Source: Escherichia phage vB_EcoP-R1. From it: a stretch of DNA of 40,875 nt. The notes beneath the pieces were generated by a model. The model did no database searches and was not told where the DNA came from. It saw nothing but the letters and a program-made list of their open reading frames with translations. Each line of letters begins with the position of its first letter. The first letter of the stretch is position 1. Both the position numbers and the translations under genes were made by a program. The stretch is from the sequence record OQ703102.1; one strand, 5' to 3'. Shown one piece after another: positions 12,227 to 40,875 of the stretch.

Positions 12227-14758
12227 ATGTCCACGATTACACAATTCCCTTCAGGAAACACTCAGTACAGGATTGAGTTCGACTACCTAGCCAGAACGTT
12301 TGTTGTTGTTACGCTGGTGAATAGCTCTAACCCTACCCTGAACCGTGTACTGGAAGTTGGTCGAGATTACCGATTCCTTAACCCAACGATGATTGAGATG
12401 TTGGTTGACCAATCAGGTTTCGACATCGTTCGTATTCACCGTCAGACTGGAACTGACTTAGTGGTAGACTTCAGGAATGGCTCAGTGTTGACAGCTAGTG
12501 ACCTGACCAATTCAGAGCTTCAGGCTATCCATATTGCAGAAGAAGGTCGAGACCAAACGGTTGACTTAGCGAAGGAATATGCCGATGCTGCTGGTAGCTC
12601 TGCTGGCAACGCTAAGGATAGCGAGGACGAAGCACGCCGAATCGCTGCGAGTATCAGGGAAGCTGGTCTAATTGGCTATATTACCCGTCGCTCCTTCGAG
12701 AAAGGCTACAACGTTACAACATGGAGCGAGGTCCTGCTATGGGAAGAGGATGGTGATTATTACCGCTGGGATGGTACGCTTCCAAAGAACGTTCCTGCTG
12801 GTTCAACTCCTGAAACTTCCGGTGGGATTGGATTAGGTTCGTGGGTTAGTGTTGGTGATGCTGCTTTAAGAAGTCAGATTTCAAACCCGGAAGGGGCAAT
12901 ACTCTACCCGGAATTGCAGATGGCAAGATGGCGTGATGATGGTGATGTTCGAGGCTGGGGTGCTAAAGGGGATGGTGTAACAGATAGTACGGAGAATATA
13001 GCTGCTTCACTAAATTCTCAAAAAGCTGTCGTAGCATCAGAAGGTGTATTCTCTAGTTCTGGTATTAATAGTAATTACTGTAACTTAGACGGCAGAGGCA
13101 GTGGTGTACTAAGTCACCGTTCCAGTACAGGTAACTACTTAGTATTTAACAATCCACGTACAGGTCGCTTAAGTAATATTACGGTAGAAAGTAATAAGGC
13201 GACGGATACCACTCAGGGACAGCAGGTATCTCTTGCTGGTGGCAGTGATGTTACGGTAAGTGACGTTAACTTCTCAAACGTTAAAGGTACTGGTTTCAGT
13301 TTAATCGCATACCCTAATGATGCGCCACCTGATGGGCTTATGATTAAAGGCATTCGAGGTAGCTATTCCGGCTATGCCACTAATAAGGCGGCTGGATGCG
13401 TACTTGCTGACTCCTCAGTTAACTCCCTCATAGATAACGTCATTGCTAAGAACTACCCTCAGTTCGGAGCTGTAGAGCTGAAAGGTACAGCCAGTTACAA
13501 CATAGTTAGTAATGTTATAGGGACAGATTGCCAGCATGTAACCTACAACGGTACTGAAGGGTCAATAGCTCCTTCTAATAACCTTATCAAGGGGGTAGTT
13601 GCTAATAATCCTAAGTATGCAGCGGTTGTTGCAGGCAAAGGTAGTACGAACTTAATATCAGACGTGCTCGTAGATTACTCAACCTCTGATGCTAGGCAGG
13701 CTCATGGTGCTACAGTAGAAGGTTCTGATAACGTCATAAATAATGTGCTTATGACAGGGTGTGATGGTACTAACTCTTTAGGGCAAGCTCAAACTGCTAC
13801 AATTGCTCGCTTTATAGATACAGCTAATAACAACTATGCGTCTGTATTTCCTAGCTACAGTGCTACAGGTGTTATTACTTTCGAATCAGGTTCTACCCGT
13901 AACTTCGTAGAGGTAAAGCATCCGGGAAGGAGAAACGACCTTCTCAGTGCTACTGGTACTATTAGCGGTGCAGATACTATTGACGGCACTAATAATAGCA
14001 ACGTAGTGCACGCCCCTGCATTAGGGCAGTACATAGGCAGTATGTCCGGTAGGTTCGAATGGCGGATTAAGTCCATGTCACTTCCATCAGGGGTTCTTAC
14101 CTCTGCGGATAAGTACAGGATGCTTGCCGATGAGGCTGTGTCATTAGCTGTAGGCGGAGGTACTTCTTCTCAAGTACGCCTGTTCACTTCTGACGGCACT
14201 TATCGGAATATATCACTTACTAGGGGTAACGTGCGTCTTCCTACCAGTAGCACAGGTTATTTGCAGTTAGGTTCTAATGCAATGACACCAGATAGTACTA
14301 ATACATACGCATTAGGTTCCGCAAGTCGAGCATGGTCTGGCGGTTTTACTCAATCAGCATTCACTGTTGTCTCAGATGCTAGGGATAAAACAGAGCCTCT
14401 TAATATCTCAGATGCTTTACTGGATGCTTGGTCTGAAGTTGACTTTGTGCAGTTTCAGTACTTGGACCGAATTGAGGAGAAGGGTGCAGACTCAGCTAGA
14501 TGGCACTTCGGCATCATCGCTCAGCGAGCTAAGGAGGCCTTCGAACGTCACGGTATAGATGCACATCGCTATGGCTTCCTGTGCTTCGACAGTTGGGATG
14601 ATGTATACGAGGAAGATGCCAATGGCTCTCGTAAACTGATTACACCAGCAGGTTCCCGCTACGGTATTCGTTACGAGGAAGTACTGATATTAGAGGCTGC
14701 GTTGATGCGGCGTACTATTAAGCGTATGCAGGAAGCATTAGCTGTTATGTCTAAGTGA
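12227..14758 (+). CDS. 17: Tailspike/tail fiber: T7 gp17-like N-terminal adaptor, pectate-lyase-type beta-helix (putative polysaccharide depolymerase), C-terminal intramolecular chaperone (peptidase S74-like)
   Basis: 843 aa. N-terminal about 150 aa resembles the gp17 tail-attachment domain; GAKGDGVTD motif at aa 245-253 (nt 12959-12985) is the hallmark of pectate-lyase-3 type tailspikes; C-terminal about 128 aa (from SDARDK at nt 14372; ...WHFGIIAQRAKEAF...) resembles the auto-cleaved chaperone domain of endosialidase-type tailspikes. Confidence 0.85.
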   Translation: MSTITQFPSGNTQYRIEFDYLARTFVVVTLVNSSNPTLNRVLEVGRDYRFLNPTMIEMLVDQSGFDIVRIHRQTGTDLVVDFRNGSVLTASDLTNSELQAIHIAEEGRDQTVDLAKEYADAAGSSAGNAKDSEDEARRIAASIREAGLIGYITRRSFEKGYNVTTWSEVLLWEEDGDYYRWDGTLPKNVPAGSTPETSGGIGLGSWVSVGDAALRSQISNPEGAILYPELQMARWRDDGDVRGWGAKGDGVTDSTENIAASLNSQKAVVASEGVFSSSGINSNYCNLDGRGSGVLSHRSSTGNYLVFNNPRTGRLSNITVESNKATDTTQGQQVSLAGGSDVTVSDVNFSNVKGTGFSLIAYPNDAPPDGLMIKGIRGSYSGYATNKAAGCVLADSSVNSLIDNVIAKNYPQFGAVELKGTASYNIVSNVIGTDCQHVTYNGTEGSIAPSNNLIKGVVANNPKYAAVVAGKGSTNLISDVLVDYSTSDARQAHGATVEGSDNVINNVLMTGCDGTNSLGQAQTATIARFIDTANNNYASVFPSYSATGVITFESGSTRNFVEVKHPGRRNDLLSATGTISGADTIDGTNNSNVVHAPALGQYIGSMSGRFEWRIKSMSLPSGVLTSADKYRMLADEAVSLAVGGGTSSQVRLFTSDGTYRNISLTRGNVRLPTSSTGYLQLGSNAMTPDSTNTYALGSASRAWSGGFTQSAFTVVSDARDKTEPLNISDALLDAWSEVDFVQFQYLDRIEEKGADSARWHFGIIAQRAKEAFERHGIDAHRYGFLCFDSWDDVYEEDANGSRKLITPAGSRYGIRYEEVLILEAALMRRTIKRMQEALAVMSK

Positions 14759-14862
14759 GTAATACTGGTACGATATTTTCGCACAATGAAATCGTTGAAC
14801 ACGCTAACCAACGTATGTAACAACTTTGGGTCACGGACGACCCGCTTTAAACTGGAGGTTTT

Positions 14863-18908: not shown

Positions 18909-18938
18909 TTGACAAGATGTACCGACTTAAAGTAGTAT
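18909..18938 (+). promoter_or_regulatory. Host sigma70-type early promoter (A3-like)
   Basis: GTTGACAAGATGTACCGACTTAAAGTAGTATGTACCACATCAAC resembles T7 A3; -35 TTGACA, -10 TAGTAT with 18-bp spacer. Confidence 0.5.
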
Positions 18939-19463: not shown

Positions 19464-19967
19464 ATGGAACGCAACGCTAACGCATACTATGAGCTGCTGG
19501 CTGCAACCGTTGAGGCATTTATCGAGCGTATTCAGTACGACCACCTGACTAAAGATGACGACTACAGCGATGCGCTGCATGAGGTCGTAGACGGTCAGGT
19601 CCCGCTCTATTACCACGAGATTTTCACGGTGATGGCTGCTGATGGTATAGACCACGAGTTCGAAGACTCTGGGCTGATGCCTGAAACCAAGGACGTAACG
19701 CGTATCCTACAAGCTCGCATCTATGAGGCACTTTATAACGACGTGTCTAATAGCTTGGATGTAGTCTGGTTTGAGGATGAAGAGGCAGACGAAGAGGATG
19801 AATATTGGGTAGTTGACGCTAAAACAGGCGCAATAATTGTGCAATCTGTAGCTCTTGAGGTCGCTACTGCATGTGCCGAGGTCAACTATGCGGCAGGTCG
19901 CCACCTGAAGGTGGAAGACATCAATGATAACGTAGTGTTCGACCCTGCGGCTGAGGACTGCGAGTGA
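19464..19967 (+). CDS. 0.3: Ocr-like anti-restriction DNA mimic (gp0.3 homolog) with a C-terminal extension of about 50 aa
   Basis: 167 aa; ...[54 protein letters not shown]... parallels T7 Ocr (...[46 protein letters not shown]...); acidic run [12 protein letters not shown], then extra non-acidic sequence absent from T7 Ocr (117 aa). Confidence 0.85.
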
Positions 19968-20121
19968 TGATAACTTACGGTTTATGCCAGCACCACGTCA
20001 CCAACGCCAGGATTTTGGTCAAAACCGGGCGGTTAAACCACGAGGAGGCCATGCGTCTCTTGAAAGTGGTCTACAGGAGACGCAAGCGCATACACGATAG
20101 TTTACACACTGAGTGATAGAC

Positions 20122-20158
20122 GAGAGGTCATCGACTGATAGGTGGCCTCAAAGATTAT
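20122..20158 (+). promoter_or_regulatory. RNase III-type hairpin (R0.5-like)
   Basis: GAGGTCATCGACTGATAGGTGGCCTCAAAGATTA matches the AAGGTCAT...GTGGCCT...ATTA pattern of the other hairpins. Confidence 0.35.
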
Positions 20159-20182
20159 CACTTACATTGATAGGGGTTAACT

Positions 20183-20287
20183 ATGAGCACTGCAGTCATC
20201 TGGACTATCTCAGGCTTCGTAGCGTGGGGAATGTTTACTCTAGTCTGCAAACTACCGGTCCTTACTCAACTGTTATGGGGCTTATGA
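20183..20287 (+). CDS. Small hydrophobic early protein (gp0.4-like position)
   Basis: 34 aa MSTAVIWTISGFVAWGMFTLVCKLPVLTQLLWGL; ATG 20183; single predicted transmembrane helix. Confidence 0.35.
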   Translation: MSTAVIWTISGFVAWGMFTLVCKLPVLTQLLWGL

Positions 20288-20487
20288 CTATGAGTAGCAC
20301 ACTATTGATAGCCATAGGCTATGGACTTATCGCCTACGTGCTGGTGAGAGACATCAACAAAGCGCGTAAAGTCTATAAATTCAACTATGTACGTATGGTC
20401 CGCTGGACTGTACGTCAACCTAACGGACGATTCCTGCGCAATTTAGCGAACGTCTGGGATATAGCAACTCTTGGGAGCAAACTGTAA
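20284..20487 (+). CDS. Small early protein (gp0.5/0.6 position)
   Basis: 67 aa from ATG 20284 (overlaps the preceding stop as ATGA); same frame as track ORF 20113..20487, whose upstream part lacks a credible start. Confidence 0.35.
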   Translation: MTMSSTLLIAIGYGLIAYVLVRDINKARKVYKFNYVRMVRWTVRQPNGRFLRNLANVWDIATLGSKL

Positions 20488-20813
20488 TGAACAAGTCATA
20501 CGGGATTAATCTGGTACACTCTATGGACGCAGAAATGAACATGTTAAGCCTACTGGCTACCGGGTATCGTCACGGAACATCAAGTCACACCGCACGTCAA
20601 CAGCAGGAGCGGGACCGTGTACTACAGGCGCGACTCCGGGCAGAGGGCCATAAGTCCGAACTGATGTGTCTGGCGTATGGTGGACGACCAATCACCGACG
20701 ATGGTAAACTTTTAGTCTCAGGCTGGAAGGCGATAGACCAACGGTCAACCATCAAGCACACGACTCACGGTGACTTCAGTCATCTTCACGCTAACCCACT
20801 GATATGCAAGTAA
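20487..20813 (+). CDS. Hypothetical early protein occupying the position of T7 gene 0.7 (no kinase)
   Basis: 108 aa, no kinase motifs; T7 gp0.7 is 359 aa. Confidence 0.45.
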   Translation: MNKSYGINLVHSMDAEMNMLSLLATGYRHGTSSHTARQQQERDRVLQARLRAEGHKSELMCLAYGGRPITDDGKLLVSGWKAIDQRSTIKHTTHGDFSHLHANPLICK

Positions 20814-20818
20814 TTATG

Positions 20819-20841
20819 ACTTAACTATCACTATAGGACTC
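20819..20841 (+). promoter_or_regulatory. Phage RNAP promoter immediately upstream of the RNAP gene
   Basis: GACTTAACTATCACTATAGGACT; +1 G at 20836; followed by tandem repeats CAAGTGAAAGAC (20857 and 20881). Confidence 0.75.
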
Positions 20842-20910: not shown

Positions 20911-23592
20911 ATGAGCGTCATCTCTATTGACAAACATGACTTCTCTGATGTGTCAAACGCCATTGAGCCGTTTAACCTGCTGGCCGACCACTACGGGCAA
21001 GACCTTGCAGTCAAACAGCTTCAGCTTGAGCATGAGGCATATACAGAAGGCGAGCGACGTTTCATCAAGAACCTTGAGCGCCAGACCGAGCGCGGGGAAC
21101 TGGCAGACAATCAGGTCGCCAAGCCTTTGATGCAGACTCTGGTCCCTAAGATTGCGCAAGCCGTCAGGGAGTGGCACGAAGGCCTAGACGGGAAGCTGTC
21201 AACCTCGCGTCCTAGCGTAGCGTTCACCATGTTGAGCACTGAAGAGAAGGCCGTAAAGGACCGCTCTATGCGCATCTCCTGTGAGTCCGCTGCGGTTATC
21301 ATACTGAAGGTCATACTCTCCAAGCTGGTCAAGCCTGAAGGGATACCGATTACACCGATGGCCTCCGCGATAGGTCGCACACTTGAGGACGAAATCCGCT
21401 TCGGTCGCATCCGTGACAAAGAGAAGGAGCACTTCAAGAAGGCGATAGCTGAGAACCTGAACAAGCGAGCTGGGGCATCCTACAAGAAAGCCTACATGCA
21501 AGCGGTCGAGGCGTCCATGCTGGAGCAAGGCCAACTGGAAGATGCATGGGGGACTTGGAGTCCTACAGAGGCTGTCCACGTTGGCATCAAGATGCTCGAG
21601 ATTGTCATCCAGTCAACACAACTGGTCGAGCTTAAGCGGTACGGTGCTGGTAATGCAGCGGCTGACGTAGAGATGGTCCACCTGTCAGACTTCTGGGTCA
21701 AGAAGATGGCACAACGAGGATTCAGCCTTGCGGGTATCGCTCCAGTCTACCAGCCTTGCGTCGTTCCACCTAAGCCGTGGACTGGTGTCGTAGGTGGTGG
21801 GTACTGGGCCAAAGGTCGCAGACCGTTACCATTGATTCGCTTAGGGTCTAAGTCTGCGGTAGCACGTTATGAAGACGTATACATGCCTGAAGTCTATGAC
21901 GCTGTGAACATCATTCAGAATACACCTTGGAAAGTTAACAAGAAGGTATTGGACGTGGTGAACATGGTCGAGAAGCTGAACAACACGCCTATTGATGACA
22001 TCCCTCAGATGGAACCGCTGAAGCCTGAGGACTATGCTGGTGAAACCGAGGAGGAACTCAAGGCATGGAAGAAGGCTGCTGCTGGTATCTATCGCCGCGA
22101 GAAGGCCAGACAGTCACGCAGATTGTCCATGAGTTTCATCGTATCACAGGCCAACAAGTTCTCACAGTTTAAGGCCATCTGGTTCCCGTACAACATGGAT
22201 TGGCGAGGTCGTGTCTACGCTGTCCCGATGTTCAACCCTCAGGGTAACGACATGCAGAAGGGTCTACTGACTCTGGCGGTCGGAAAGCCTATCGGGGCGG
22301 ATGGTTTCAAATGGCTTAAAGTCCACACCGCCAACTGCGCGGGTGTCGATAAGGTAACCTTTGAGGAGCGTATCAAATGGGTGGAAGACAATCACGAGAA
22401 CATTCTGGCAGCAGCCAAATCACCGATGGACAGCATCGAGTGGTGGGGGAGTATGGACAGCCCCTTCTGCTTCCTAGCGGCTTGCTTCGAGTATTCTGGG
22501 GTGATGAACCATGGCTTGACCTACAATTGCTCACTTCCGATTGCCTTCGACGGCTCGTGTTCGGGGATTCAGCACTTCAGCGCGATGCTGAGGGACCACG
22601 TAGGCGGACATGCAGTGAACTTAACGCCGTCTGGTCAGGTGCAGGACATCTACCGTATAGTCTCAGACCGTGTGTCAGACCAGTTGAAAGAGCTATTACT
22701 GATCGGTACGGACGACGAGCTGGTGACCGTAGAGGACAAGAAGACTGGGGAAATCAGCGAACGCCTGAAGCTTGGGACCAAGAGTCTTGCGCGTCAGTGG
22801 CTGCAATTCGGTATGTCTCGCTCGGTCACTAAGCGCTCGGTCATGACTCTGGCCTACGGGTCGAAAGAGTATGGGTTCGCCGACCAAGTGTTCGAAGACA
22901 CCGTGATGCCAGCGATTGACTCCGGTAAGGGAGCAATGTTCACCGAGCCAAGCCAAGCGTCTCGCTTCATGGCTAAGATGATTTGGGAAGCTGTGAGTGT
23001 GACAGTAGTTGCTGCGGTTGACGCGATGAAGTGGCTTCAAGGTGCCGCCAAGCTGCTGGCTGCTGAAGTGAAGGACAAGAAGACTGGTGAAATCCTGAAG
23101 CCATGCCTTCCGGTACACTGGGTCACACCTGATGGGTTCCCGGTCTGGCAGGAATACCGCAAGAAGGATACCACTCGTCTGAACCTGATGTTCTTAGGGT
23201 CCTTCAACCTTCAACCTACGGTCAACAAAGGTACGAAGAAAGAGCTGGACAAGCACAAGCAGGAGTCAGGCATTAGCCCGAACTTCGTCCACTCACAAGA
23301 TGGTAGCCACCTCCGCAAGACTGTAGTCCACACGCACCGCAAGTATGGCGTGATGTCATTCGCAGTGATTCACGATAGCTTCGGGACCATCCCGGCTGAC
23401 GCTGAGTATCTGTTCCGTGGCGTCCGTGAGACGATGGTAGAGACATACCGCGATAACGATGTGCTGCTTGACTTCTACGAGCAGTTTGAATACCAGCTTC
23501 ATGAAAGCCAGCGCGACAAGTTGCCTGAGCTTCCGAAGAAAGGTAAACTGAATATCGAAGACATCTTGTCTTCAGACTTTGCATTCGCTTAA
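20911..23592 (+). CDS. 1: Single-subunit DNA-dependent RNA polymerase (gp1 homolog)
   Basis: 893 aa; NDFSD...PFN.LADHYG, GRIRD.E..HFKK, PCVVPPKPWTG..GGGYWA.GRRPL, AIWFPYNMDWRGRVYA, FDGSCSGIQHFSAMLRD, RSVTKRSVMTLAYGSKE, HDSFGT and C-terminal FAFA all parallel T7 RNAP. Confidence 0.97.
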   Translation: MSVISIDKHDFSDVSNAIEPFNLLADHYGQDLAVKQLQLEHEAYTEGERRFIKNLERQTERGELADNQVAKPLMQTLVPKIAQAVREWHEGLDGKLSTSRPSVAFTMLSTEEKAVKDRSMRISCESAAVIILKVILSKLVKPEGIPITPMASAIGRTLEDEIRFGRIRDKEKEHFKKAIAENLNKRAGASYKKAYMQAVEASMLEQGQLEDAWGTWSPTEAVHVGIKMLEIVIQSTQLVELKRYGAGNAAADVEMVHLSDFWVKKMAQRGFSLAGIAPVYQPCVVPPKPWTGVVGGGYWAKGRRPLPLIRLGSKSAVARYEDVYMPEVYDAVNIIQNTPWKVNKKVLDVVNMVEKLNNTPIDDIPQMEPLKPEDYAGETEEELKAWKKAAAGIYRREKARQSRRLSMSFIVSQANKFSQFKAIWFPYNMDWRGRVYAVPMFNPQGNDMQKGLLTLAVGKPIGADGFKWLKVHTANCAGVDKVTFEERIKWVEDNHENILAAAKSPMDSIEWWGSMDSPFCFLAACFEYSGVMNHGLTYNCSLPIAFDGSCSGIQHFSAMLRDHVGGHAVNLTPSGQVQDIYRIVSDRVSDQLKELLLIGTDDELVTVEDKKTGEISERLKLGTKSLARQWLQFGMSRSVTKRSVMTLAYGSKEYGFADQVFEDTVMPAIDSGKGAMFTEPSQASRFMAKMIWEAVSVTVVAAVDAMKWLQGAAKLLAAEVKDKKTGEILKPCLPVHWVTPDGFPVWQEYRKKDTTRLNLMFLGSFNLQPTVNKGTKKELDKHKQESGISPNFVHSQDGSHLRKTVVHTHRKYGVMSFAVIHDSFGTIPADAEYLFRGVRETMVETYRDNDVLLDFYEQFEYQLHESQRDKLPELPKKGKLNIEDILSSDFAFA

Positions 23593-26882: not shown

Positions 26883-27080
26883 GTGGTGCCGGGAGATGTA
26901 CGAGAAGACTCTCAACCCGGACTACATTACGTTATACAACCAATGGAAGGAGCGTGGTTTATGAACCAAGACCAGATTAACTTTGTGTGTCAGCTTATTA
27001 AGGAGTTCGTGGACTTCACTGATTTATCCGAAGAGGAACTTGTTAAGCTGGAAGAGATTCTCGACAAGGAGGTTTTATGA
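26883..27080 (+). CDS. Small acidic hypothetical protein (start uncertain; likely ATG 26961)
   Basis: Track ORF begins at a GTG; an internal ATG at 26961 with RBS AAGGAG gives a 39-aa product [39 protein letters not shown]. Confidence 0.3.
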
Positions 27081-27235
27081 CTGAGGTTGAGAAGAAGTAC
27101 ATCGTGGAGCTTGAGGGACGCGTTCAGTCCTTCGAGGTTCCGTTGTACGCAAAGTCTCTTGAAGAGGCTACCCTGAAGTCCCAAGAGTATGAGGACGCTG
27201 GTTTTGTGGTCGGTCGGATTCGTCCTGAGGCCTAA
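27077..27235 (+). CDS. 2: Host RNA polymerase inhibitor (gp2 homolog)
   Basis: 52 aa [52 protein letters not shown]; resembles T7 gp2 (...[34 protein letters not shown]); below the track cutoff. Confidence 0.7.
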
Positions 27236-29666: not shown

Positions 29667-31370
<1,704 letters not shown>

Positions 31371-31381
31371 GGAGGAGTACA

Positions 31382-31546
31382 TTGCTAAGAAAACTTAAAG
31401 CTCGCTACCATCGGTTCATGTACAAATGGTGGAGTGATGAAGCAACCTGCCTGTCCAACATTCTGGGAGACCAGAGGTTCGACTCTAAGGCTTGGAAGAA
31501 GGCTAACCGGAAGTTTATGTATCACTTCTTGCGTACAGACTTCTAG
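31382..31546 (+). CDS. Hypothetical small protein (gp4.3 position; start uncertain)
   Basis: Track ORF 31349..31546 overlaps the gene 4 end; a TTG at 31382 follows RBS AAGGAGG; an ATG at 31419 is the alternative. Confidence 0.35.
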
Positions 31547-31549
31547 GTC

Positions 31550-31592
31550 TAGACTCAAGGTCATTCACATCGAGTGGCCTTTATGATTAGAC
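31550..31592 (+). promoter_or_regulatory. RNase III-type processing hairpin (R4.7-like)
   Basis: TAGACTCAAGGTCATTCACATCGAGTGGCCTTTATGATTAG; third near-identical copy. Confidence 0.5.
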
Positions 31593-31614
31593 TTATAACT
31601 AAAGGAGAAGCAAT

Positions 31615-32046
31615 ATGAGGACTTGTAGTAGATGTGGCTCTACAAAGGAGTCCACTGAGTTCAGGAAGACAAATGGGTGGTGCATATCCTGTGTTCGTGA
31701 GGATAATAGGTCGCGATATCATCGAAACAAAGGTACAGAGGCCGGTGAGGCGCATCGCCTATCTGCCCGTAAGTCTTGGCTTAAGAAAGCCTATGGTCTC
31801 ACACTTGAGGAATATGACACTATGTTCGATAGTCAAAAGGGCAGATGCGCTATATGCTCAGACATTATCTTCAAGCATGGGTCTATTGAGAGTAAGAATA
31901 ATGTAGCCCACGTTGACCATTGCCATGACTCAGGTATTGTTAGGGGATTGCTATGTGGTACATGTAATAGCGCACTTGGTAAGTTCGGTGACAAGGTAGC
32001 CGTGCTTAGGGCTGCTATAACGTACTTGGAGAAATATAATGTTTAA
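31615..32046 (+). CDS. HNH endonuclease, endonuclease VII-type (putative homing endonuclease)
   Basis: 143 aa; Cys-rich N-terminus (CSRCGS...CISC) plus CAICSD...HVDHCHDSGIVRGLLCGTCNSALG, the typical endonuclease-VII/HNH zinc-binding core. Confidence 0.8.
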   Translation: MRTCSRCGSTKESTEFRKTNGWCISCVREDNRSRYHRNKGTEAGEAHRLSARKSWLKKAYGLTLEEYDTMFDSQKGRCAICSDIIFKHGSIESKNNVAHVDHCHDSGIVRGLLCGTCNSALGKFGDKVAVLRAAITYLEKYNV

Positions 32047-34210
32047 TCTCAACTCATTCTATGGCACAGATATAGAGACTGACGGTCTACTAGACACTGT
32101 GTCACAGTTCCATTGTGGTGTTATCATTAACGCTGGAACTCAGGCTACTGAGAAATATGGTGTTGCCCCTATGACTGGGCTGACAGGTGGATTCAAAGAG
32201 TACATAGACCGCATAGAATCTATTATGGCATCCACTGACGGTATGCTGGTTCTGCACAATGGTGTGAACTATGATATACCAGCCTTGAAAATACTGAAGA
32301 AGAAATACTTTGGTAAGAACCTAAATGTGAATAAGGGTCGAATTATTGATACCTTGGTACTTGGTCGCTTGATGTATCCAAACATTAAGTTCTCAGACAT
32401 GGGCGCGGTGAAAGCTGGTCGTCTGCCACCTAAGATGATGGGACGCCAGTCTCTTGAGGCTTGGGGCTATCGTCTCGGTGAGATGAAAGGTGAGTACAAA
32501 CACGATTACGTTGCCAAGTGCAAGGCTGAAGGTATCGAATATAAGGCTGGGGACGAATGGTTGTTCCCGTCTCAGGAGATGCTGGACTATAACGTTCAAG
32601 ACGTTGTGGTCACACTGGCGTTGTTCAAGAAGTTCCTGACTGACAAGTATTACTTCCAGTCTGAACAGTTTGCTTTCGACCAGATTTATGCGTTGCGTCT
32701 GGAACATGATGCTGCGTGGACCTGTGCGAAGATGGAGCGTAACGGCTATCCGATGAACACCGAGATGGTCGAAGGCTTATATCGTGAACTCACCGTCAAA
32801 CGTGCAGAGTTGTTGGACAAGCTGCGTTCGACTTTCGGTAGCTGGTATGCACCAAAGGGAGGCAAGGAGTTCTTCAAGCACCCACGGACAGGCAAGGACC
32901 TTCCGAAGTATCCGCGAGTCGTGTATCCTAGGGTCGGGTCAGTATTCAAGAAGCCGAAGAACAAAGCTCAACGCTTAGGTCTGGAGCCTTGCGAGTTCGA
33001 CTCACGAGACACGATGGAAGGAGCACCGTTCACGCCAATCACTTACGTTGAGTTTAATCCGGGAAGCGGAGACCACTTAGCGAAAGTCTTGATGGAGCGT
33101 GGTTGGGAGCCTGTGGACTTCACTGACACTGGGAAACCTGTAGTAGATGACGAGACGTTAGAACACGTTAAGCTACCAGACGCAGAGGCTCAGGCTTGCG
33201 TAGAGCTGGTCCGTGAGTATCTGGTAGTCCAGAAGCGCATCGGTCAGGCGGCTGAAGGTAAGAACGCATGGTTGAAACTTGTAGGTCCAGACGGACGTAT
33301 GCACGGTTCAATCAACCCATGCGGTGCAGTAACAGGACGTGCGACTCATAGTTCACCAAACATGGCTCAGGTCCCTGCTAACGGTGCTCCGTATGGTGAG
33401 ATTTGCCGTGGTGCTTTCGGTGCAGCTTGGAACAAGACGGATGGTAAGCCAGACCCTTGGATTCAAGTGGGTGTGGATGCTTCAGGTCTTGAGCTTCGTT
33501 GTCTGGGGAACCGAGCAGCTCCGTTTGATGGTGGTGCCTATGCGAAGACTGTGGTCGAAGGTGACATCCACTGGGCCAACGCAGTAAACGCTGGTTTAGC
33601 ACCTAACGTCCCACGCGATAAATCGAGCCACGACCATGATGCTTTCCGTAACAACGCTAAGACGTTCATCTATGCGTTCCTGTATGGTGCAGGGGCCGCT
33701 AAGATTGGACTGATAGTCGGCGGTGGTAAGAAGGAAGGTTCAGCTCTCATGAAGAAATTCATTGAGGGTACACCAGCCATCAAAGACCTCAGGGAAGCTG
33801 TGAGTAATACGTTAATCTCAGACTCTAAGTGGGTAGATGGTGAGAACATCGTTAAGTGGAAACGCCGTTGGCTGCGTGGACTTGACGGTCGCCGTATCCA
33901 CATCCGGTCGCCACACTCAGCACTGAACGCCTTACTTCAAGGTGACGGTGCGGTAGTCTGTAAGCACTGGATGGTACTGACGGAGAAGAAACTTGAGGAA
34001 GCTGGCTACGGTAATGGCTGGGATGGTGACTTTGCGCTAATGGCTTGGATTCACGACGAATTGCAGATTGCGTGTCGTACTCAGGAGATTGCCGAAGAAG
34101 TCGTCCGTATTGCACAAGAAGCAATGCGTGAGGTAGGACGTTTTTATAACTTCAAGTGTGATCTTGATACGGAGGGTAAGATTGGACCAACGTGGAAAGA
34201 GTGTCACTGA
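32039..34210 (+). CDS. 5: DNA polymerase, family A (gp5 homolog)
   Basis: 723 aa; ...SQFHCGVII, LEAWGYRLGEMKGEYK, DYNVQDVVVT, HPRTGK.LPKYPR, FKKPKNKAQR, GAVTGRATHS.PN.AQ.P, DASGLELRCLG, KTFIYAFLYGAG, KRRWL.GLDGR..H.RSPH.ALN.LLQ, GWDGDFA.MAW.HDE.Q parallel T7 gp5. Confidence 0.97.
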   Translation: MFNLNSFYGTDIETDGLLDTVSQFHCGVIINAGTQATEKYGVAPMTGLTGGFKEYIDRIESIMASTDGMLVLHNGVNYDIPALKILKKKYFGKNLNVNKGRIIDTLVLGRLMYPNIKFSDMGAVKAGRLPPKMMGRQSLEAWGYRLGEMKGEYKHDYVAKCKAEGIEYKAGDEWLFPSQEMLDYNVQDVVVTLALFKKFLTDKYYFQSEQFAFDQIYALRLEHDAAWTCAKMERNGYPMNTEMVEGLYRELTVKRAELLDKLRSTFGSWYAPKGGKEFFKHPRTGKDLPKYPRVVYPRVGSVFKKPKNKAQRLGLEPCEFDSRDTMEGAPFTPITYVEFNPGSGDHLAKVLMERGWEPVDFTDTGKPVVDDETLEHVKLPDAEAQACVELVREYLVVQKRIGQAAEGKNAWLKLVGPDGRMHGSINPCGAVTGRATHSSPNMAQVPANGAPYGEICRGAFGAAWNKTDGKPDPWIQVGVDASGLELRCLGNRAAPFDGGAYAKTVVEGDIHWANAVNAGLAPNVPRDKSSHDHDAFRNNAKTFIYAFLYGAGAAKIGLIVGGGKKEGSALMKKFIEGTPAIKDLREAVSNTLISDSKWVDGENIVKWKRRWLRGLDGRRIHIRSPHSALNALLQGDGAVVCKHWMVLTEKKLEEAGYGNGWDGDFALMAWIHDELQIACRTQEIAEEVVRIAQEAMREVGRFYNFKCDLDTEGKIGPTWKECH

Positions 34211-34241
34211 CCCTCGAACCAAGACCTTGCGCTTCCACACA

Positions 34242-34535
34242 ATGCCTACTGGATGTATCGTCTGCGTGTCCCACAAGAGGAACCAAGATGGATACTTCCG
34301 GTATTCTATGGGAAGCTACAGGAAGGGCAACAAGTTCGCCTTCATGTTTCACAGATGGGTGTGGGAACAGAAGCGCGGACCTATACCGGATGGCTATGAG
34401 ATAGACCATTTGTGTTTGAATCGTGGGTGCTGTAACGTAGAACATCTACAATGTATTCCAAAGCGTGATCACGTCATCAAGACGAACCGTGAGCGCAAAC
34501 TTATTAAGAAGGAGAAGACTAATGGCTATTACTAA
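34242..34535 (+). CDS. HNH endonuclease (gene 5.3 position)
   Basis: 97 aa from ATG 34242 (track ORF 34158..34535 starts inside DNAP); ...GYFRYSMGSYRKGNKFAFMFHRWVWEQKRGPIPDGYEIDHLCLNRGCCNVEHLQCIPKRDH...N is a classic HNH core. Confidence 0.75.
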   Translation: MPTGCIVCVSHKRNQDGYFRYSMGSYRKGNKFAFMFHRWVWEQKRGPIPDGYEIDHLCLNRGCCNVEHLQCIPKRDHVIKTNRERKLIKKEKTNGYY

Positions 34536-34806
34536 ACGTATTCGTGTAAGTTTCGACCTGAAGATGGTTGTCAGCTCAAAGGAAGAAGATACCATGTGTC
34601 GCCAACTGGCTGAGATGACTAAAGCCTACGCTGAGGGTGAGAAGCTGGATGGACTTCAGGTGGCTATGGTCAAAGCAGCAATCGAGTCAGGCCCTGAGTC
34701 TGCCCTTGAAATTGCCCTCAAGAAGACCATCAAGGAGGAGCTGGTAGACGCCTTTGGTGATGACCAGTTCGGAGTATCTAACCTGCGATTCGAGGTCAAG
34801 CAATGA
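34522..34806 (+). CDS. 5.5: gp5.5-position protein
   Basis: 94 aa from ATG 34522 (MAITKRIRVSFDLK...); N-terminus resembles T7 gp5.5 as I recall it; start overlaps the HNH gene end. Confidence 0.55.
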   Translation: MAITKRIRVSFDLKMVVSSKEEDTMCRQLAEMTKAYAEGEKLDGLQVAMVKAAIESGPESALEIALKKTIKEELVDAFGDDQFGVSNLRFEVKQ

Positions 34807-35012
34807 GTGAATACTTACGGGTCCTAGCGGCCCTTAAGTCCTGCCCGAAGACCTTCCAGTCTAACTATGTGCGCAACAACGCTGCACTTGTGGCTGAGGC
34901 TGCGAGTCGTGGACATCTAAGCTGCCTGTCTATGGATGGGCGTAACAACGGTGCGTGGGAAATTACCGCTGCTGGCACCAAGTTCCTGAACCAACACGGA
35001 GGCTGTCTATGA
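34803..35012 (+). CDS. 5.7: gp5.7-position protein
   Basis: 69 aa, same length as T7 gp5.7; ...KSCPKTFQSNYVRNNAALVAEAASRGH...; assigned by position and size. Confidence 0.6.
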   Translation: MSEYLRVLAALKSCPKTFQSNYVRNNAALVAEAASRGHLSCLSMDGRNNGAWEITAAGTKFLNQHGGCL

Positions 35013-35458
35013 AGATACCTGAAAGTCTGAAAGAGCTGGTCCTTGACATGGGTGAGTGCGAGAAGGAGCACCGCAAGTACGCTGAGTTCTACGCATCTTG
35101 GTCATACACCTTGACAGAGAAGGACGTTGAGTCATACACCGAGTCTCCCGCTGAGGCTTATGAGTGGCGTCCATTCATCGGACTGACCATCGTAGCTAGC
35201 GGTATGTGGGATGACAGATACGGTTCAGAGGTAAACGACTGGGACGTGTGCCGCCAAGTTGAGAAGGAGACTGAGATGTCTTCAAACTTCTGGAACCTGA
35301 TGTCACACCTAAACTCAGAGGACAACGACAAGGCCCATGAGTTCGCCAACAAATGGCTGAAGCCTGAGGTGACTCTCGAACGTATAGAGGAGCCGAAAGT
35401 GCCCTTGATGCCATATGTAGTCGCTATGGCTACAGGAGGTCTGGACGATGGGTGCTGA
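35009..35458 (+). CDS. Acidic hypothetical protein at the gene 5.9 position (much longer than T7 gp5.9)
   Basis: 149 aa from ATG 35009 (overlaps the 5.7 stop as ATGA); Glu/Asp-rich; T7 gp5.9 is 52 aa. Confidence 0.5.
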   Translation: MKIPESLKELVLDMGECEKEHRKYAEFYASWSYTLTEKDVESYTESPAEAYEWRPFIGLTIVASGMWDDRYGSEVNDWDVCRQVEKETEMSSNFWNLMSHLNSEDNDKAHEFANKWLKPEVTLERIEEPKVPLMPYVVAMATGGLDDGC

Positions 35459-36317
35459 GAAGAAGATAGCTCTTGTTCTTGATGGCGATTACCTAGTATT
35501 CTCTTCTATGGCTGCTGCCGAGGACGAGACAGACTGGGGTGATGACATCTGGACCCTTATCTGCGACCATGAGAAGGCTCGCCGTATCCTTGAGAACACC
35601 ATCGCTGAAATCGTTAAGAAGCGCAAGGCGTGGAAAGACGCTAAGATTGTGATGTGCTTCACCGACGATTACAACTGGCGTAAGGACGTACTTCCTACCT
35701 ATAAGGCTAACCGTAAGGGTTCTCGCAAGCCTGTAGGTTACAAGAAGTTCGTAGCCGAAGTGATGGCTGACCCACGGTTCAACAGCTTCCTGCGTCCCAC
35801 GCTTGAGGGTGATGACTGTATGGGTATCATCGGGACCAGACCTCAGATTGTCGGATGTGACCATGCGGTTCTGGTGTCCTGTGATAAGGACTTCAAGACC
35901 ATACCGAACTGTGAGTTCTTCTGGTTGACCACTGGTGAAATCCTGAGTCATACGACTGCTGAGGCAGACTACTGGCACATGGAGCAGACCATCAAGGGCG
36001 ATACTACAGATGGCTACGGCGGGATTCCGGGGATGGGTGAGGACACCACTCGTGCGTTCCTTGACGAGCCGTACTACTTCGTTCAGGAGAGCCGTGAGCT
36101 TAAGACTGGTAAGAACAAAGGCCAGATTAAGACTGAGTGGAAGAAGTATCCGAAGCGTGAAGACATGACGCTGTGGGACTGCATGGTTACACTGGCTGCT
36201 AAGGCTGGCATGACCGAGGAGGAACTTCTGGTCCAAGCTCAGGTCGCTCGTATTTGTCGAGCCTCCGACTACGACCCTAAGTCCAAGGAGGTCATCCTAT
36301 GGACACCATCCATGTAA
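35448..36317 (+). CDS. 6: 5-prime to 3-prime exonuclease (gp6 homolog)
   Basis: 289 aa; ...WRKDVLPTYKANRK...KPVGY..F......LEGDD.MG.I......VSCDKDFKTIPNCEFFW.TTG.IL...DYWH...QTIKGD.TDGY.GI.G...KTGKNKGQ...TLWDC....AKAGMTEE parallel T7 gp6. Confidence 0.92.
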   Translation: MGAEKKIALVLDGDYLVFSSMAAAEDETDWGDDIWTLICDHEKARRILENTIAEIVKKRKAWKDAKIVMCFTDDYNWRKDVLPTYKANRKGSRKPVGYKKFVAEVMADPRFNSFLRPTLEGDDCMGIIGTRPQIVGCDHAVLVSCDKDFKTIPNCEFFWLTTGEILSHTTAEADYWHMEQTIKGDTTDGYGGIPGMGEDTTRAFLDEPYYFVQESRELKTGKNKGQIKTEWKKYPKREDMTLWDCMVTLAAKAGMTEEELLVQAQVARICRASDYDPKSKEVILWTPSM

Positions 36318-36391
36318 TTTACTGGGTCGGACTTCTGGCCCTTTACTGCATGTACAAGTGGTTCGGGTCGAACAACCGCCCTAAACACTGA
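36299..36391 (+). CDS. Putative small hydrophobic peptide (gene 6.3 position)
   Basis: 30 aa MDTIHVIYWVGLLALYCMYKWFGSNNRPKH; RBS AAGGAGG 7 nt upstream; overlaps the 3-prime end of gene 6. Confidence 0.3.
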   Translation: MDTIHVIYWVGLLALYCMYKWFGSNNRPKH

Positions 36392-36443
36392 GTCTAGCCG
36401 ATAGTCATATCCTATCAATCCAACAGTCATCCATAGGTGAAAC

Positions 36444-36466
36444 ACTAAACTATCACTATAGGGACT
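36444..36466 (+). promoter_or_regulatory. Phage RNAP promoter (phi6.5-like)
   Basis: CACTAAACTATCACTATAGGGAC; +1 G at 36461; followed by an inverted-repeat leader (GACTTTAGGACC...GACTTTAGTC). Confidence 0.8.
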
Positions 36467-36527
36467 TTAGGACCTAAGATATGACTATAAGATAGACTTT
36501 AGTCTTAACTTAAAGAGGAGATTCAAG

Positions 36528-36800
36528 ATGGCTATTACTGCTATTGAAAACGTTGTTAAGCAGTTACAGGAAGAAAGACTTGATGTCCCGAACATCTCAC
36601 AGTCTGCTATCCAGTTCCTGCACGTATTGTTCAACGCAAGCTACGCTGAGAAGATGGGAGCTATCAGTCTCCTCAAGCAGCAAGGCTACAGCGATGCGTT
36701 CATTGCCGGGTTCATCAAGGGTCTCCAGTATTGTTCTGACACTCTCGACTCTGCGATTGCTATGCGTCGTGAGCTGAAAGATACCGTTCAGTTTGATTAA
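36528..36800 (+). CDS. gp6.5-position protein
   Basis: 90 aa; RBS AAAGAGGAG; assigned by position. Confidence 0.5.
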   Translation: MAITAIENVVKQLQEERLDVPNISQSAIQFLHVLFNASYAEKMGAISLLKQQGYSDAFIAGFIKGLQYCSDTLDSAIAMRRELKDTVQFD

Positions 36801-36814
36801 CTGTAGGAGGGACT

Positions 36815-37039
36815 ATGTGTTTCAGTCCGAAGATTAGCACTCCGAAGCCTTCGGTCCAAGCACCTGAACCAGCACCTCTGAGTGAGGAAGTTGCGTCAGT
36901 TGACATCGGGGCTGAATCAGATGTGGACACCAACGAGACCCAAGGTATCAAAGACCTGAAGGTCAAGAAGGAGTCTGCACCTAAAGATAAATCGTCAGTT
37001 AGCCGCGCCATGCGAGCCTCTGGCGTCAACATGGGGTAA
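36815..37039 (+). CDS. 6.7: gp6.7-like virion protein
   Basis: 74 aa; N-terminal MCFSPKI.TPK and EPAPL motif resemble T7 gp6.7. Confidence 0.7.
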   Translation: MCFSPKISTPKPSVQAPEPAPLSEEVASVDIGAESDVDTNETQGIKDLKVKKESAPKDKSSVSRAMRASGVNMG

Positions 37040-37043
37040 GACA

Positions 37044-37448
37044 ATGCTACCATATCTCAACTCACGCGAAGGTCGCCATATGTGCGCTTGTCGCCTCTGG
37101 GAAGACGGGCAGTCTAACTTCAAGTCATTCGAGGACTTCAAGGCTCATACTTACCGTATGGCTGACGAGTTCGACGGTGAAGAATACACAATCTACGATG
37201 CCTCAGGTCAACCAGTAGCGTATCTCTACATGCTGGCTACCGCATCTTGGCACCGACCGACTCCCGGTCTTGACCTTTCAATAGTCGCTATTCGTCGTGA
37301 CTCGCAGTCCTCCCGCAAGGTTCTTGAGACTGTCAGACACATCATAGACGAAGAGTGCAAGCGTTGGGGTCTTGGCTGGTATTCTCGTGTCAAGCATGTT
37401 TCCGGGTCGGTAGACATCGTAACAACTAAGGAGATTAATCGTGGGTAA
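37044..37448 (+). CDS. gp7-position protein
   Basis: 134 aa (T7 gp7 133 aa); assigned by position and size. Confidence 0.5.
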   Translation: MLPYLNSREGRHMCACRLWEDGQSNFKSFEDFKAHTYRMADEFDGEEYTIYDASGQPVAYLYMLATASWHRPTPGLDLSIVAIRRDSQSSRKVLETVRHIIDEECKRWGLGWYSRVKHVSGSVDIVTTKEINRG

Positions 37449-37689
37449 ATCAATCAGTAAGGCCTTCAAGAAAGTGGTGAAAAGTACGTTAGGGACCGTT
37501 GGTCTTGGCTCTGATGACGCGCCTAAGGTTGTTGAGGCTAAGACCCCAGCAGCACCAGTGGAAGTACCGAACGACAAAGTGGAGGATGTGGATACTGAAG
37601 CAACCGCATCTGATGAGAAGAAAGTGAAGCGTTCCGGTAAGCGTAGCCTTCAGGTCTCTCGCACCTCTGGTGGCGGTATTTCTATATGA
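37441..37689 (+). CDS. 7.3: gp7.3-like tail/virion protein
   Basis: 82 aa, Lys/Ala/Val-rich, ends ...RSLQVSRTSGGGISI (T7 gp7.3 ends similarly as I recall); GTG start. Confidence 0.65.
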   Translation: MGKSISKAFKKVVKSTLGTVGLGSDDAPKVVEAKTPAAPVEVPNDKVEDVDTEATASDEKKVKRSGKRSLQVSRTSGGGISI

Positions 37690-38102
37690 CAGGGTGCATC
37701 GAGTGGAAGTGGGCCAAATCCTCAGCAGGATACGGGCAGAAGCGTATAGACGGTAAGTTAGTGTATATGCACCGACTCGCTTACGCCGATGCACATGGGC
37801 CAATACCAGACGGAATGCTCGTCCGTCATAAGTGTGATAATCCAGCATGTTTTAACGTAAACCACTTAGAGTTAGGAACTCAGCGTGATAACATGCAGGA
37901 CGCCTCAAAGCGTGGTCGAGTCAATAAAACCAAAATGGCTAGAGGTGAGGACCAAGGGTTATCGGTTTTAACAGAAGACCTTGTTCGAGAAATCCGCAAG
38001 TCAACAGTAGGTTGTACAACACTGGCTCGTGAGCTGGGCGTTAGCAAGTCTACAGTTTTGCGGGTTCGCCAAGGTAAAACATGGAGGCACGTAGATGGCT
38101 GA
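37686..38102 (+). CDS. HNH endonuclease with C-terminal helix-turn-helix (gene 7.7 position)
   Basis: 138 aa; ...GYGQKRIDGKLVYMHRLAYADAHGPIPDGMLVRHKCDNPACFNVNHLELGTQRDN... HNH core; C-terminal ...TLARELGVSKSTVLRVRQGKTW is HTH-like. Confidence 0.75.
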   Translation: MTGCIEWKWAKSSAGYGQKRIDGKLVYMHRLAYADAHGPIPDGMLVRHKCDNPACFNVNHLELGTQRDNMQDASKRGRVNKTKMARGEDQGLSVLTEDLVREIRKSTVGCTTLARELGVSKSTVLRVRQGKTWRHVDG

Positions 38103-39663
38103 ACGTGAAGGATTTGCCGCTGAAGGCGCGAAGTCAGTTTATGATAGGCTGAAGAACGGACGACAACCTTACGAGACCAGAGCACAGAACTGCGCTGCCG
38201 TGACCATACCGTCGCTATTTCCGAAGGAATCTGATAACTCCTCGACGGAATATTCAACTCCGTGGCAAGCTGTAGGTGCTCGCTGTTTGAACAACTTGGC
38301 TGCAAAGCTGATGTTGGCATTATTCCCTCAGTCACCGTGGATGCGACTGACAGTCTCCGAATATGAGGCCAAGACCTTGAGTCAGGACTCAGAGGCTGCT
38401 GCTCGTGTTGACGAAGGGCTGGCTATGGTCGAGCGTGTGTTGATGGCCTACATGGAGACCAACAGTTTCCGTGTGCCATTGTTCGAAGCTCTGAAGCAGC
38501 TTATCGTCTCCGGTAACTGTCTGCTTTACATTCCAGAGCCTGAACAGGGTACTTACAGTCCTATGCGAATGTACCGCTTAGTGTCATACGTTGTTCAACG
38601 TGATGCTTTCGGTAATATCTTGCAGATTGTGACTCTCGACAAGGTAGCGTTTAGTGCTCTACCGGAAGACGTGAAGTCACAACTCAACGCAGACGACTAT
38701 GAGCCTGACACAGAGCTGGAAGTTTATACGCACATCTACCGTCAAGACGACGAGTATCTACGTTATGAGGAAGTGGAAGGCATTGAGGTAGCAGGGACCG
38801 ATGGTTCCTACCCACTGACTGCATGTCCATACATCCCGGTACGAATGGTTCGACTGGATGGTGAAGACTATGGTCGTTCTTACTGCGAGGAGTATCTGGG
38901 TGACCTGAACTCGCTGGAGACGATTACAGAAGCTATCACCAAAATGGCTAAGGTAGCCTCCAAGGTGGTGGGCCTCGTTAACCCGAACGGTATCACGCAA
39001 CCTCGTCGGCTGAACAAGGCGGCTACAGGTGAGTTCGTTGCCGGTCGCGTTGAGGACATCAACTTCCTGCAACTGACTAAGGGTCAGGACTTTACGATTG
39101 CCAAGTCGGTGGCTGACGCTATCGAGCAACGTTTAGGCTGGGCCTTCCTTCTTAATAGTGCTGTTCAGCGCAACGCCGAGCGAGTCACTGCTGAAGAGAT
39201 TCGTTATGTTGCTGGCGAACTGGAGGCGACCTTAGGTGGCGTGTACTCAGTACAATCCCAAGAGCTTCAGTTACCTATCGTCCGTGTGCTGATGAACCAA
39301 CTTCAGTCTGCTGGCATGATTCCTGACCTTCCGAAAGAAGCGGTAGAGCCTACTGTCTCCACTGGTCTGGAAGCGTTAGGTCGTGGTCAGGACTTGGAGA
39401 AGCTAACTCAGGCGGTTAACATGATGACTGGTCTTCAGCCGCTATCTCAGGACCCGGACATCAACTTGCCGACCCTTAAGCTACGACTCCTGAACGCTCT
39501 GGGTATCGACACCGCCGGCCTTCTGCTGACTCAGGACGAGAAGATGCAACGTATTGCTGAACAATCCGCTCAAGGAGCTGTGGTCAACGGTGCGTCTGCT
39601 GCTGGTGCTAACATGGGTGCTGCTGTAGGTCAGGGAGCTGGTGAGGACATGGCTCAAGCCTAA
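38095..39663 (+). CDS. 8: Portal / head-to-tail connector protein (gp8 homolog)
   Basis: 522 aa (T7 gp8 536 aa); conserved position between 7.7 and scaffold. Confidence 0.93.
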   Translation: MAEREGFAAEGAKSVYDRLKNGRQPYETRAQNCAAVTIPSLFPKESDNSSTEYSTPWQAVGARCLNNLAAKLMLALFPQSPWMRLTVSEYEAKTLSQDSEAAARVDEGLAMVERVLMAYMETNSFRVPLFEALKQLIVSGNCLLYIPEPEQGTYSPMRMYRLVSYVVQRDAFGNILQIVTLDKVAFSALPEDVKSQLNADDYEPDTELEVYTHIYRQDDEYLRYEEVEGIEVAGTDGSYPLTACPYIPVRMVRLDGEDYGRSYCEEYLGDLNSLETITEAITKMAKVASKVVGLVNPNGITQPRRLNKAATGEFVAGRVEDINFLQLTKGQDFTIAKSVADAIEQRLGWAFLLNSAVQRNAERVTAEEIRYVAGELEATLGGVYSVQSQELQLPIVRVLMNQLQSAGMIPDLPKEAVEPTVSTGLEALGRGQDLEKLTQAVNMMTGLQPLSQDPDINLPTLKLRLLNALGIDTAGLLLTQDEKMQRIAEQSAQGAVVNGASAAGANMGAAVGQGAGEDMAQA

Positions 39664-39681
39664 ACTATCACTATAGGAACT
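39659..39681 (+). promoter_or_regulatory. Phage RNAP promoter (phi9-like)
   Basis: CCTAAACTATCACTATAGGAACT overlapping the portal stop; +1 G at 39676. Confidence 0.8.
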
Positions 39682-39760
39682 TAGACAAGATTCACAAAGC
39701 ATTAGGCCGGGTGAGACTCCCGGTCGGTTCCTATCATCAACTTAAAAGGAGAATGACTCA

Positions 39761-40605: not shown

Positions 40606-40843
40606 GGTGTTTAGTTTTCAGGCTGGCGCACTGGCAGGTGTGCAAATTGTTTCACAAGCTGCAAAACGCAGTGCCGATGGCGAGCTGCTGTTAGCGACCC
40701 GTAACCGCTTGAGTAGTGTTGTTCCACTGTCGCCAGACGCCTGGCAAATGTTGAGCGCGCCGTTGCGCCAGCCGGGCATTGTGGCTTTGCGGGAATATTT
40801 ACGCCAGCGTCCCCCCGCCTGCATACGACCACTCAACCAGGTC
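40606..40843 (+). other. Unidentified non-phage, GC-rich coding-like fragment (probable bacterial chromosomal DNA) joined in-frame to gene 9
   Basis: Open + frame ...LAGVQIVSQAAKRSADGELLLATRNRLSSVVPLSPDAWQMLSAPLRQPGIVALREYLRQRP... with GC content clearly higher than the phage; I cannot assign it from sequence alone. Confidence 0.3.
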
Positions 40844-40875
40844 AGATCGGAAGAGCGTCGTGTAGGGAAAGAGTG
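40844..40875 (+). other. Illumina TruSeq adapter sequence (AGATCGGAAGAGCGTCGTGTAGGGAAAGAGTG)
   Basis: Exact 32-nt match to the standard Illumina adapter read-through sequence at the extreme 3-prime end of the window. Confidence 0.95.

Follow-up and report, generated by a model that had tools for sequence, protein, structure and literature searches.

The three small open reading frames (ORFs) at positions 20183-20813 of Escherichia phage vB_EcoP-R1 (sequence record OQ703102.1) are best explained as a whole, with a probability of about 0.85, as belonging to the ordinary early region of a kinase-less Kayfunavirus of the K1F/LM33_P1 type. As judged from the whole stretch of 40,875 nucleotides that was analysed, hereafter termed the window, the phage encodes no gp0.7-type protein kinase anywhere and in any frame. 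The absence of the kinase is already known, being visible in the deposited annotations of the phages K1F, LM33_P1 and CR44b. The three ORFs, too, are already known as hypothetical genes, and in sister species two of them are found together with the kinase. The lack of gene 0.7, noted in a preceding sequence-only reading, is not special to this genome, as most members of the genus, K1F, LM33_P1 and CR44b among them, are likewise without it; the claim as stated has little weight, the lack of gene 0.7 being normal for K1F-type phages. An explicit statement on the missing gene 0.7 in K1F-like phages was not found in full-text literature searches, which did not include the K1F genome paper. The features of the window on which the following analysis is based are:

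19464..19967, + strand: Ocr (gp0.3) homologue of 167 aa with an extended C-terminus (Pfam ocr, 9.3e-29; phrog_2568, 3e-53)
19964..20116, + strand: p50, a gp0.4-like protein of 50 aa (PHROG cross-matches, position)
20110..20164, + strand: putative R0.5-like hairpin (RNA fold, arms in common with T7)
20183..20287, + strand: p34, a hydrophobic peptide of 34 aa (one predicted membrane helix)
20284..20487, + strand: p67, 65-70 aa depending on the start (phrog_2385, 2.9e-32)
20487..20813, + strand: p108, a conserved orphan of the EcoDS1 Gp0.38 family (helical core, variable N-terminus)
20815..20837, + strand: copy of the phage RNA polymerase promoter, ACTTAACTATCACTATAGG
20911..23592, + strand: gene 1, single-subunit RNA polymerase of 893 aa (Pfam RNA_pol, 5e-105; RPOL_N)
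27077..27235, + strand: gp2 homologue, inhibitor of the host RNA polymerase, 52 aa (PF16857 RNA_pol_inhib, 70.1 bits)

The coordinates of the three small ORFs were verified, as was their location on the plus strand, where they are tiled just upstream of gene 1. The second ORF terminates with a stop codon at 20487 and has candidate starts at 20275, 20284 and 20290, which specify proteins of 70, 67 and 65 aa, respectively. The reading frames of p34 and p67 overlap by ATGA, those of p67 and p108 by TAATG and those of ocr and p50 by GTGA, and p34, p67 and p108 are probably translationally coupled. The proposed order of the region is Ocr, the gp0.4-like p50, an R0.5-like RNase III hairpin, p34, p67, p108, a phage promoter and gene 1. 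The segment 20183-20813 would accordingly constitute the last stretch of an ordinary host-transcribed early (class I) region, and its similarity to T7 suggests that the three ORFs are expressed from one RNase III-processed segment of the early mRNA. The early region of T7 reportedly contains small coupled ORFs that are transcribed by the host RNA polymerase. A scan of the window for sigma-70 promoters yielded its best upstream match at 18909, a match to the consensus only, and such matches were not enriched in comparison with shuffled sequences.

At the place equivalent to 20183-20813 phage T7 carries the 359-aa gp0.7, as correctly stated in the sequence-only reading, and a search of the whole window with this protein by tblastn gave a best E value of 1.0. 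Additionally, a custom HMM was built from ten diverse gp0.7-type kinases, with sources in T7, Berlinvirus, Przondovirus, Teetrevirus, Aarhusvirus, the Kayfunavirus IMM-002 and phages of Caulobacter, Xylella and Pseudomonas, and was searched against six full-length frame translations in which the stops were masked. Only negative scores with E values of at least 0.66 were obtained in all six frames of the window, and ten single-sequence phmmer searches of the same frames produced scores near or below zero. As a positive control, a leave-one-out HMM recovered the kinase of IMM-002, which is about 31% identical to that of T7, at 1.4e-65. The negative result of the gp0.7 HMM together with the working control therefore indicates that a gp0.7-type kinase is absent both from the region and from the remainder of the genome. 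When all sizeable ORFs of the window, long antisense ones included, were scanned with Pfam, no kinase family was obtained; since the positive control failed, T7 gp0.7 being without a match in Pfam, these scans are not valid on their own as a test for the kinase. The kinase families phrog_2828 and phrog_15752 were not matched by any of the six early ORFs (p84, ocr, p50, p34, p70 and p108). The earlier view that the three ORFs are devoid of kinase motifs is thus supported, kinase similarity being present in none of them, and the six-frame profile search found nothing either in a frameshifted reading of the region or elsewhere in the genome.

That a gp0.7-type kinase is nevertheless hidden in the window, being frameshifted within 20183-20813, relocated or diverged past recognition, was considered extremely improbable. 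Such a gene would escape domain scans with Pfam, which are blind to the gp0.7 family, and the label 'protein kinase' does occur in this region of some GenBank relatives. These labels, however, are located on the Ocr homologue, which matches Pfam ocr at 9e-29, and represent misannotations, and the HMM and phmmer searches over six frames were empty although the same approach detects a kinase of only 31% identity. Moreover, the region of 631 bp offers room for no more than 210 aa and is filled by three ORFs under purifying selection. A kinase with an entirely different fold is formally conceivable, but all ORFs of at least 150 aa in the window belong to T7-type families or are antisense shadows. 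The mislabelled Ocr homologues, annotated as 'protein kinase' or 'Phage protein kinase', were observed in IME177 (QYC97317.1, positions 448-951 of the retrieved locus) and in LT594300 (LM33_P1); they could mislead automated surveys of kinase genes.

With respect to the taxonomic position of the phage, the 2-kb stretch around the three ORFs is about 95% identical at the nucleotide level to many Kayfunavirus records, the best matches being coliphages of the LM33_P1 type. Collinearity with LM33_P1, in circularly permuted form, extends over the whole window. The early region displays the synteny of Kayfunavirus, consisting of ocr, the gp0.4-like gene, phrog_2385, phrog_7066 and gene 1. Pfam analysis identified a T7-type gene set on the plus strand that comprises RNA polymerase, ligase, gp2, SSB, endonuclease I, amidase, primase-helicase, DNA polymerase and exonuclease as well as portal, scaffold, capsid, tail and internal virion proteins and the terminase. 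The record of vB_EcoP-R1 would thus represent the circularly permuted genome of a Kayfunavirus of the K1F/LM33_P1 type (Studiervirinae, Autographiviridae). The early regions of K1F and LM33_P1 show the same gene order, with p84, ocr, a 50-aa gp0.4-like ORF, the hairpin, a small hydrophobic ORF, a 65-67-aa 'gp0.6', a member of the p108 family, the promoter and gene 1; they likewise lack gene 0.7, and their proteins are 80-100% identical to those of the window.

The distribution of the kinase within the genus was deduced from 22 IMG/VR loci that encode a p108 homologue and from three GenBank relatives. In K1F, which is the type species, as well as in LM33_P1 and CR44b, small early ORFs are directly followed by gene 1, without gene 0.7. 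The Kayfunavirus IMM-002, on the other hand, carries a gene annotated as 'SAM-dependent methyltransferase' (gp0.3) and a gene for a 244-aa gp0.7-like kinase, followed by the p67 homologue. A kinase gene upstream of p67 was present in 6 of the 22 IMG/VR loci, all six of which also contain p67 and p108, and exactly these six loci are devoid of ocr and p50. Across the surveyed loci p67, p108 and gene 1 form a near-invariant core. The gene table of Enterobacter phage B1 lists a SAM lyase, a 243-aa kinase and hypothetical proteins of 53, 64 and 108 aa, followed by the RNA polymerase (PMC12785254). The kinase-bearing Kayfunaviruses IMM-002, Dev2, GW1, SFP21A and B1 therefore share the genus and the p67-p108-gene 1 core with the phage studied here and differ from it at the left end, where a SAM lyase, a small ORF and the 244-aa gp0.7-like kinase replace ocr and the gp0.4-like ORF.

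Among the GenBank phages, about 42 records contain a kinase that shares 80% identity or more with that of IMM-002, compared with 212 records containing a gene of the p108 family; the resulting kinase frequency of about 20% was estimated from two tblastn counts made separately and not from a per-genome tally. These record counts, along with K1F, LM33_P1, CR44b and the surveyed loci, consequently identify the kinase-less condition as the majority state of the genus. The data suggest that Kayfunavirus possesses two alternative left-end modules, one with ocr and the gp0.4-like gene and the other with a gp0.3 of the SAM lyase/methyltransferase type and the kinase. The kinase would then be an accessory gene that belongs, along with the SAM lyase, to the alternative module of approximately one fifth of the members. 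Being polymorphic within one genus and tied to the choice between Ocr and SAM lyase, the kinase offers a natural comparison for studying its purpose.

The position of p34 was reassessed with reference to the genes that precede it. The p50 protein matches phrog_5058 at 2e-24 and, weakly, phrog_7202, the family of T7 gp0.4, at 0.022; T7 gp0.4 in turn matches phrog_5058 at 9e-5, and a tblastn search with T7 gp0.4 gave an E value of 0.19 at p50. The homologue of p50 is annotated as 0.4 in CR44b, and the dN/dS values of p50 range from 0.15 to 0.5. According to both sequence matches and position, p50 is a relative of gp0.4 that directly abuts ocr. Gene 0.4 of T7 encodes an inhibitor of FtsZ. The sequence-only reading had assigned the gp0.4-like position to p34, which has to be corrected in favour of p50 on account of the reciprocal PHROG matches, the abutment to ocr and the label in CR44b.

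Between p50 and p34 an RNA hairpin was detected at 20110-20164, with a folding energy of -24.5 kcal/mol (z = -5.3), a longer stretch yielding -26.9 kcal/mol (z = -3.9). It resembles the hairpin at nucleotides 1430-1478 of T7, in the 0.4/0.5 intergenic region, in having the same two-stem shape and the common arms GUGAUAGAC...AGGUC and GGCCU...GAUUAUCAC. The RNase III site R0.5 of T7 is reported to lie there (Dunn and Studier 1983). Two stems, an internal loop, an intergenic location after gene 0.4 and sequence similarity to the T7 hairpin were all found in the window, and the structure is regarded as a putative R0.5-like RNase III site, cleavage being presumed by analogy with T7. Since p34 is located downstream of a hairpin that resembles the 0.4/0.5 hairpin of T7, it occupies the position of gp0.5 and not that of gp0.4. 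The corresponding segment of T7, with genes 0.5, 0.6A/B and 0.7, is likewise bounded by such a hairpin (R0.5) and by gene 1, and also begins with a small gene for a hydrophobic protein; in contrast to T7, the window encodes no kinase in this segment, and p34, p67 and p108 show no detectable similarity to gp0.5, gp0.6 and gp0.7.

The description of p34 as a 34-aa single-helix membrane peptide is in agreement with the presence of one hydrophobic segment and one predicted membrane helix, the Kyte-Doolittle maximum over 19 residues being 1.80 at residues 4-22. No match to p34 was obtained in PHROG and Pfam scans; T7 gp0.5 belongs to phrog_16572, and a blastp comparison of the two proteins detected nothing. 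Hence p34 is like T7 gp0.5 in position and hydrophobic character only. One might assume that one or more of the ORFs, chiefly p34, are chance reading frames in a leader or intergenic region: p34 has no family in PHROG or Pfam, lacks an annotation in several records, occurs in few of the surveyed loci and is missing from most relatives, and its close copies differ by too few substitutions for a test of selection. Copies with all 34 codons intact are, however, present in 33 phage records, the amino acid identity being as low as 68%, and comparison with a copy of 82% identity revealed 11 synonymous and 7 non-synonymous changes, corresponding to a dN/dS value of 0.15. Moreover, a purine-rich AGGGG motif precedes the ATG of p34 by about 10 nucleotides, and its stop codon is part of the ATGA overlap with the next gene. 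A chance reading frame was accordingly rated as quite improbable, and p34 is treated here as a gene of the kinase-less early region.

Comparison with related phages revealed that the slot downstream of the hairpin is variable. The LM33_P1-like phages contain 353 bp of additional DNA between p50 and p34, which consists of one 75-aa ORF (phrog_32657) missing from the window and a hairpin copy of its own. Two hairpin copies hence flank the 75-aa gene in these phages (positions 1405-1460 and 1765-1820 in the relative L001), whereas the window contains a single hybrid hairpin that combines the left flank of the first copy with the body of the second one. The hairpin and the Shine-Dalgarno region are also present in K1F as far as the start codon, beyond which a different gene follows, coding for a 55-aa hydrophobic protein that is unrelated to p34. 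The slot is thus occupied elsewhere by the K1F protein, by the 75-aa ORF or by other sequence, and p34 may be one of several interchangeable small cassettes located after the hairpin. From these junctions we infer that the small early genes might be swapped by recombination at the hairpins.

The p67 protein has a predicted N-terminal membrane helix, with a Kyte-Doolittle value of 1.94 at residues 3-21, and a strongly basic tail with 11 lysine and arginine residues compared with 2 aspartate and glutamate residues. The family comprises 114 clusters, whose members are all located on phage contigs about 40 kb in length, and most of the homologues have 64-67 aa. The gene was present in 24 of the 25 surveyed relatives, kinase carriers included, and dN/dS values of 0.15-0.5 at larger divergence, or of about 0.02-0.35 in the range obtained jointly for p67 and the p108 core, indicate purifying selection. 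Homologues of p67 are labelled 'gp0.6' in the K1F record and also in a note of the IMM-002 record. The gp0.6 protein of T7 is an inhibitor of MreB. A cross-match between the families phrog_2385 of p67 and phrog_8393 of T7 gp0.6A was not detected, and tblastn searches with gp0.6A found nothing in the window; as the two proteins belong to different PHROG families without a cross-match, the label '0.6' on the p67 homologues denotes position only.

The p108 protein belongs to a narrow family with 144 clusters at 90% identity and only 14 representatives at 50% identity in an exhaustive HMMER profile search of 1.84 billion proteins, which revealed no annotated relatives. Its N-terminus is variable and is followed by a highly conserved core of 80 residues, with T92, G95, F97, H99 and L100 among the invariant positions and the motif T-x-x-G-D-F-x-H-L; the homologue of K1F is unannotated, and its similarity spans only residues 41-108 of the query. 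The dN/dS values of p67 and the p108 core are about 0.02-0.35 at larger divergence and 0.15-0.35 relative to the more divergent family members, and those of p108 are 0-0.1 relative to closer ones. Structure prediction by AF2 with a broader alignment resulted in a confident three-helix core. A search of the PDB with the p108 model yielded no significant neighbour in structure, and in BFVD the model retrieved only its own family, EcoDS1 Gp0.38 being among the matches. Pfam and PHROG scans of p34, p67 and p108 returned families of unknown function or no match.

The small ORFs could be taken as replacements of gp0.7, with p108 in particular acting as a stand-alone analogue of its C-terminal host-shutoff domain. 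This would explain why the Kayfunavirus kinases are short, with 244 aa and the kinase domain only, align only to residues 20-218 or thereabouts of T7 gp0.7 and do not match phrog_2828 beyond profile position 225 of 366. Furthermore, p108 adjoins gene 1 on the upstream side, as does the 3' end of gene 0.7 in T7, and contains a helix rich in arginine, glutamine and glutamate at residues 36-52. A relationship to the C-terminal shutoff domain was rejected, as comparison of the p108 family with full-length gp0.7 by hhalign gave a probability of 0.13%; tblastn produced chance matches only, and a structural match was not obtained. In addition, homologues of p67 and p108 are located in the same place beside the kinase in 6 of the 22 loci and in phage B1 (PMC12785254), so that the small ORFs do not qualify as stand-ins for the kinase. 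Because p67 and p108 also occur in the kinase-bearing Kayfunaviruses, they belong to the genus core and are not kinase substitutes, and their equal conservation in phages with and without the kinase argues against compensation for its loss. Replacement of gp0.7 by the small ORFs is consequently regarded as unlikely. In the preferred reading of an ordinary kinase-less early region, p67 and p108 would be genus-wide core early genes irrespective of the kinase.

Judged from position and class, p34 and p67 would both be small proteins of the inner membrane, and p108 would be soluble and helical. By analogy with gp0.4-0.7 of T7, the three probably act as non-essential accessories in host takeover or anti-defence; as they show no homology to characterised proteins, this role is assigned from position and expression class only. 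A more far-reaching reading combines two proposals. The p67/p108 pair, a membrane-anchored basic protein and a helical protein that are fixed upstream of gene 1 whatever the left module, could serve in host takeover or anti-defence with a new target, and the R0.5-type hairpins would be the recombination joints of cassettes such as p34, the K1F p55 and the 75-aa ORF. Taken jointly, these proposals are tentative and appear rather doubtful. The two genus-wide orphan early proteins lend themselves as candidates in screens for toxicity or anti-defence activity.

The suggestion that the phage shuts off its host by other means is in agreement with the presence of a gp2 homologue, which matches PF16857 at 27077-27232 with 70.1 bits, compared with a gathering cutoff of 27. 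In T7, gp0.7 is dispensable in the laboratory and gp2 is the essential inhibitor of the host RNA polymerase. Shutoff of host transcription in vB_EcoP-R1 would thus be left to the gp2 homologue.

The boundary between p108 and gene 1 differs from that of T7 in that the window contains no clear R1-type hairpin before gene 1, where the fold was no better than that of shuffled sequences (z = -0.63), and has a phage promoter there instead. The promoter at 20815-20837 agrees in sequence with the other intergenic copies of the window that have the exact core, and is kept in 17 of 25 relatives, including K1F; it is also annotated as 'predicted promoter' in CR44b. The annotated promoters of T7 between genes 0.7 and 1 comprise the E. 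coli C promoter only and no phage promoter. A promoter at this site would allow the phage polymerase to transcribe its own gene.

Further observations concern other parts of the window. Positions 1-394 correspond to the E. coli gene nikA with 99.7% identity and positions 40605-40847 to yehQ with 98.8% identity; phage homology ends at 40609 and resumes at 396, and chromosomal DNA of two unlinked E. coli loci is thus joined to the phage sequence at the gp9/gp10 junction. These ends most likely result from chimeric assembly rather than from a real insertion. Since E. coli DNA is present at both ends, the ORF of the scaffold protein (gp9) runs past the end of the window. The tail fibre/spike gene at 12227-14758 (Pfam Tail_spike_N, Peptidase_S74) contains a C-terminal part, covered by 12861-14799, that is unaligned with LM33_P1, which suggests that the receptor-binding or depolymerase domain differs. 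Segments between 24427 and 35457 are likewise unaligned or poorly aligned with LM33_P1, and the Pfam domains Endonuclease_7, HNH_3 and zf-His_Me_endon were detected among the ORFs of 29670-40694; vB_EcoP-R1 is therefore likely to carry insertions of the homing-endonuclease type.
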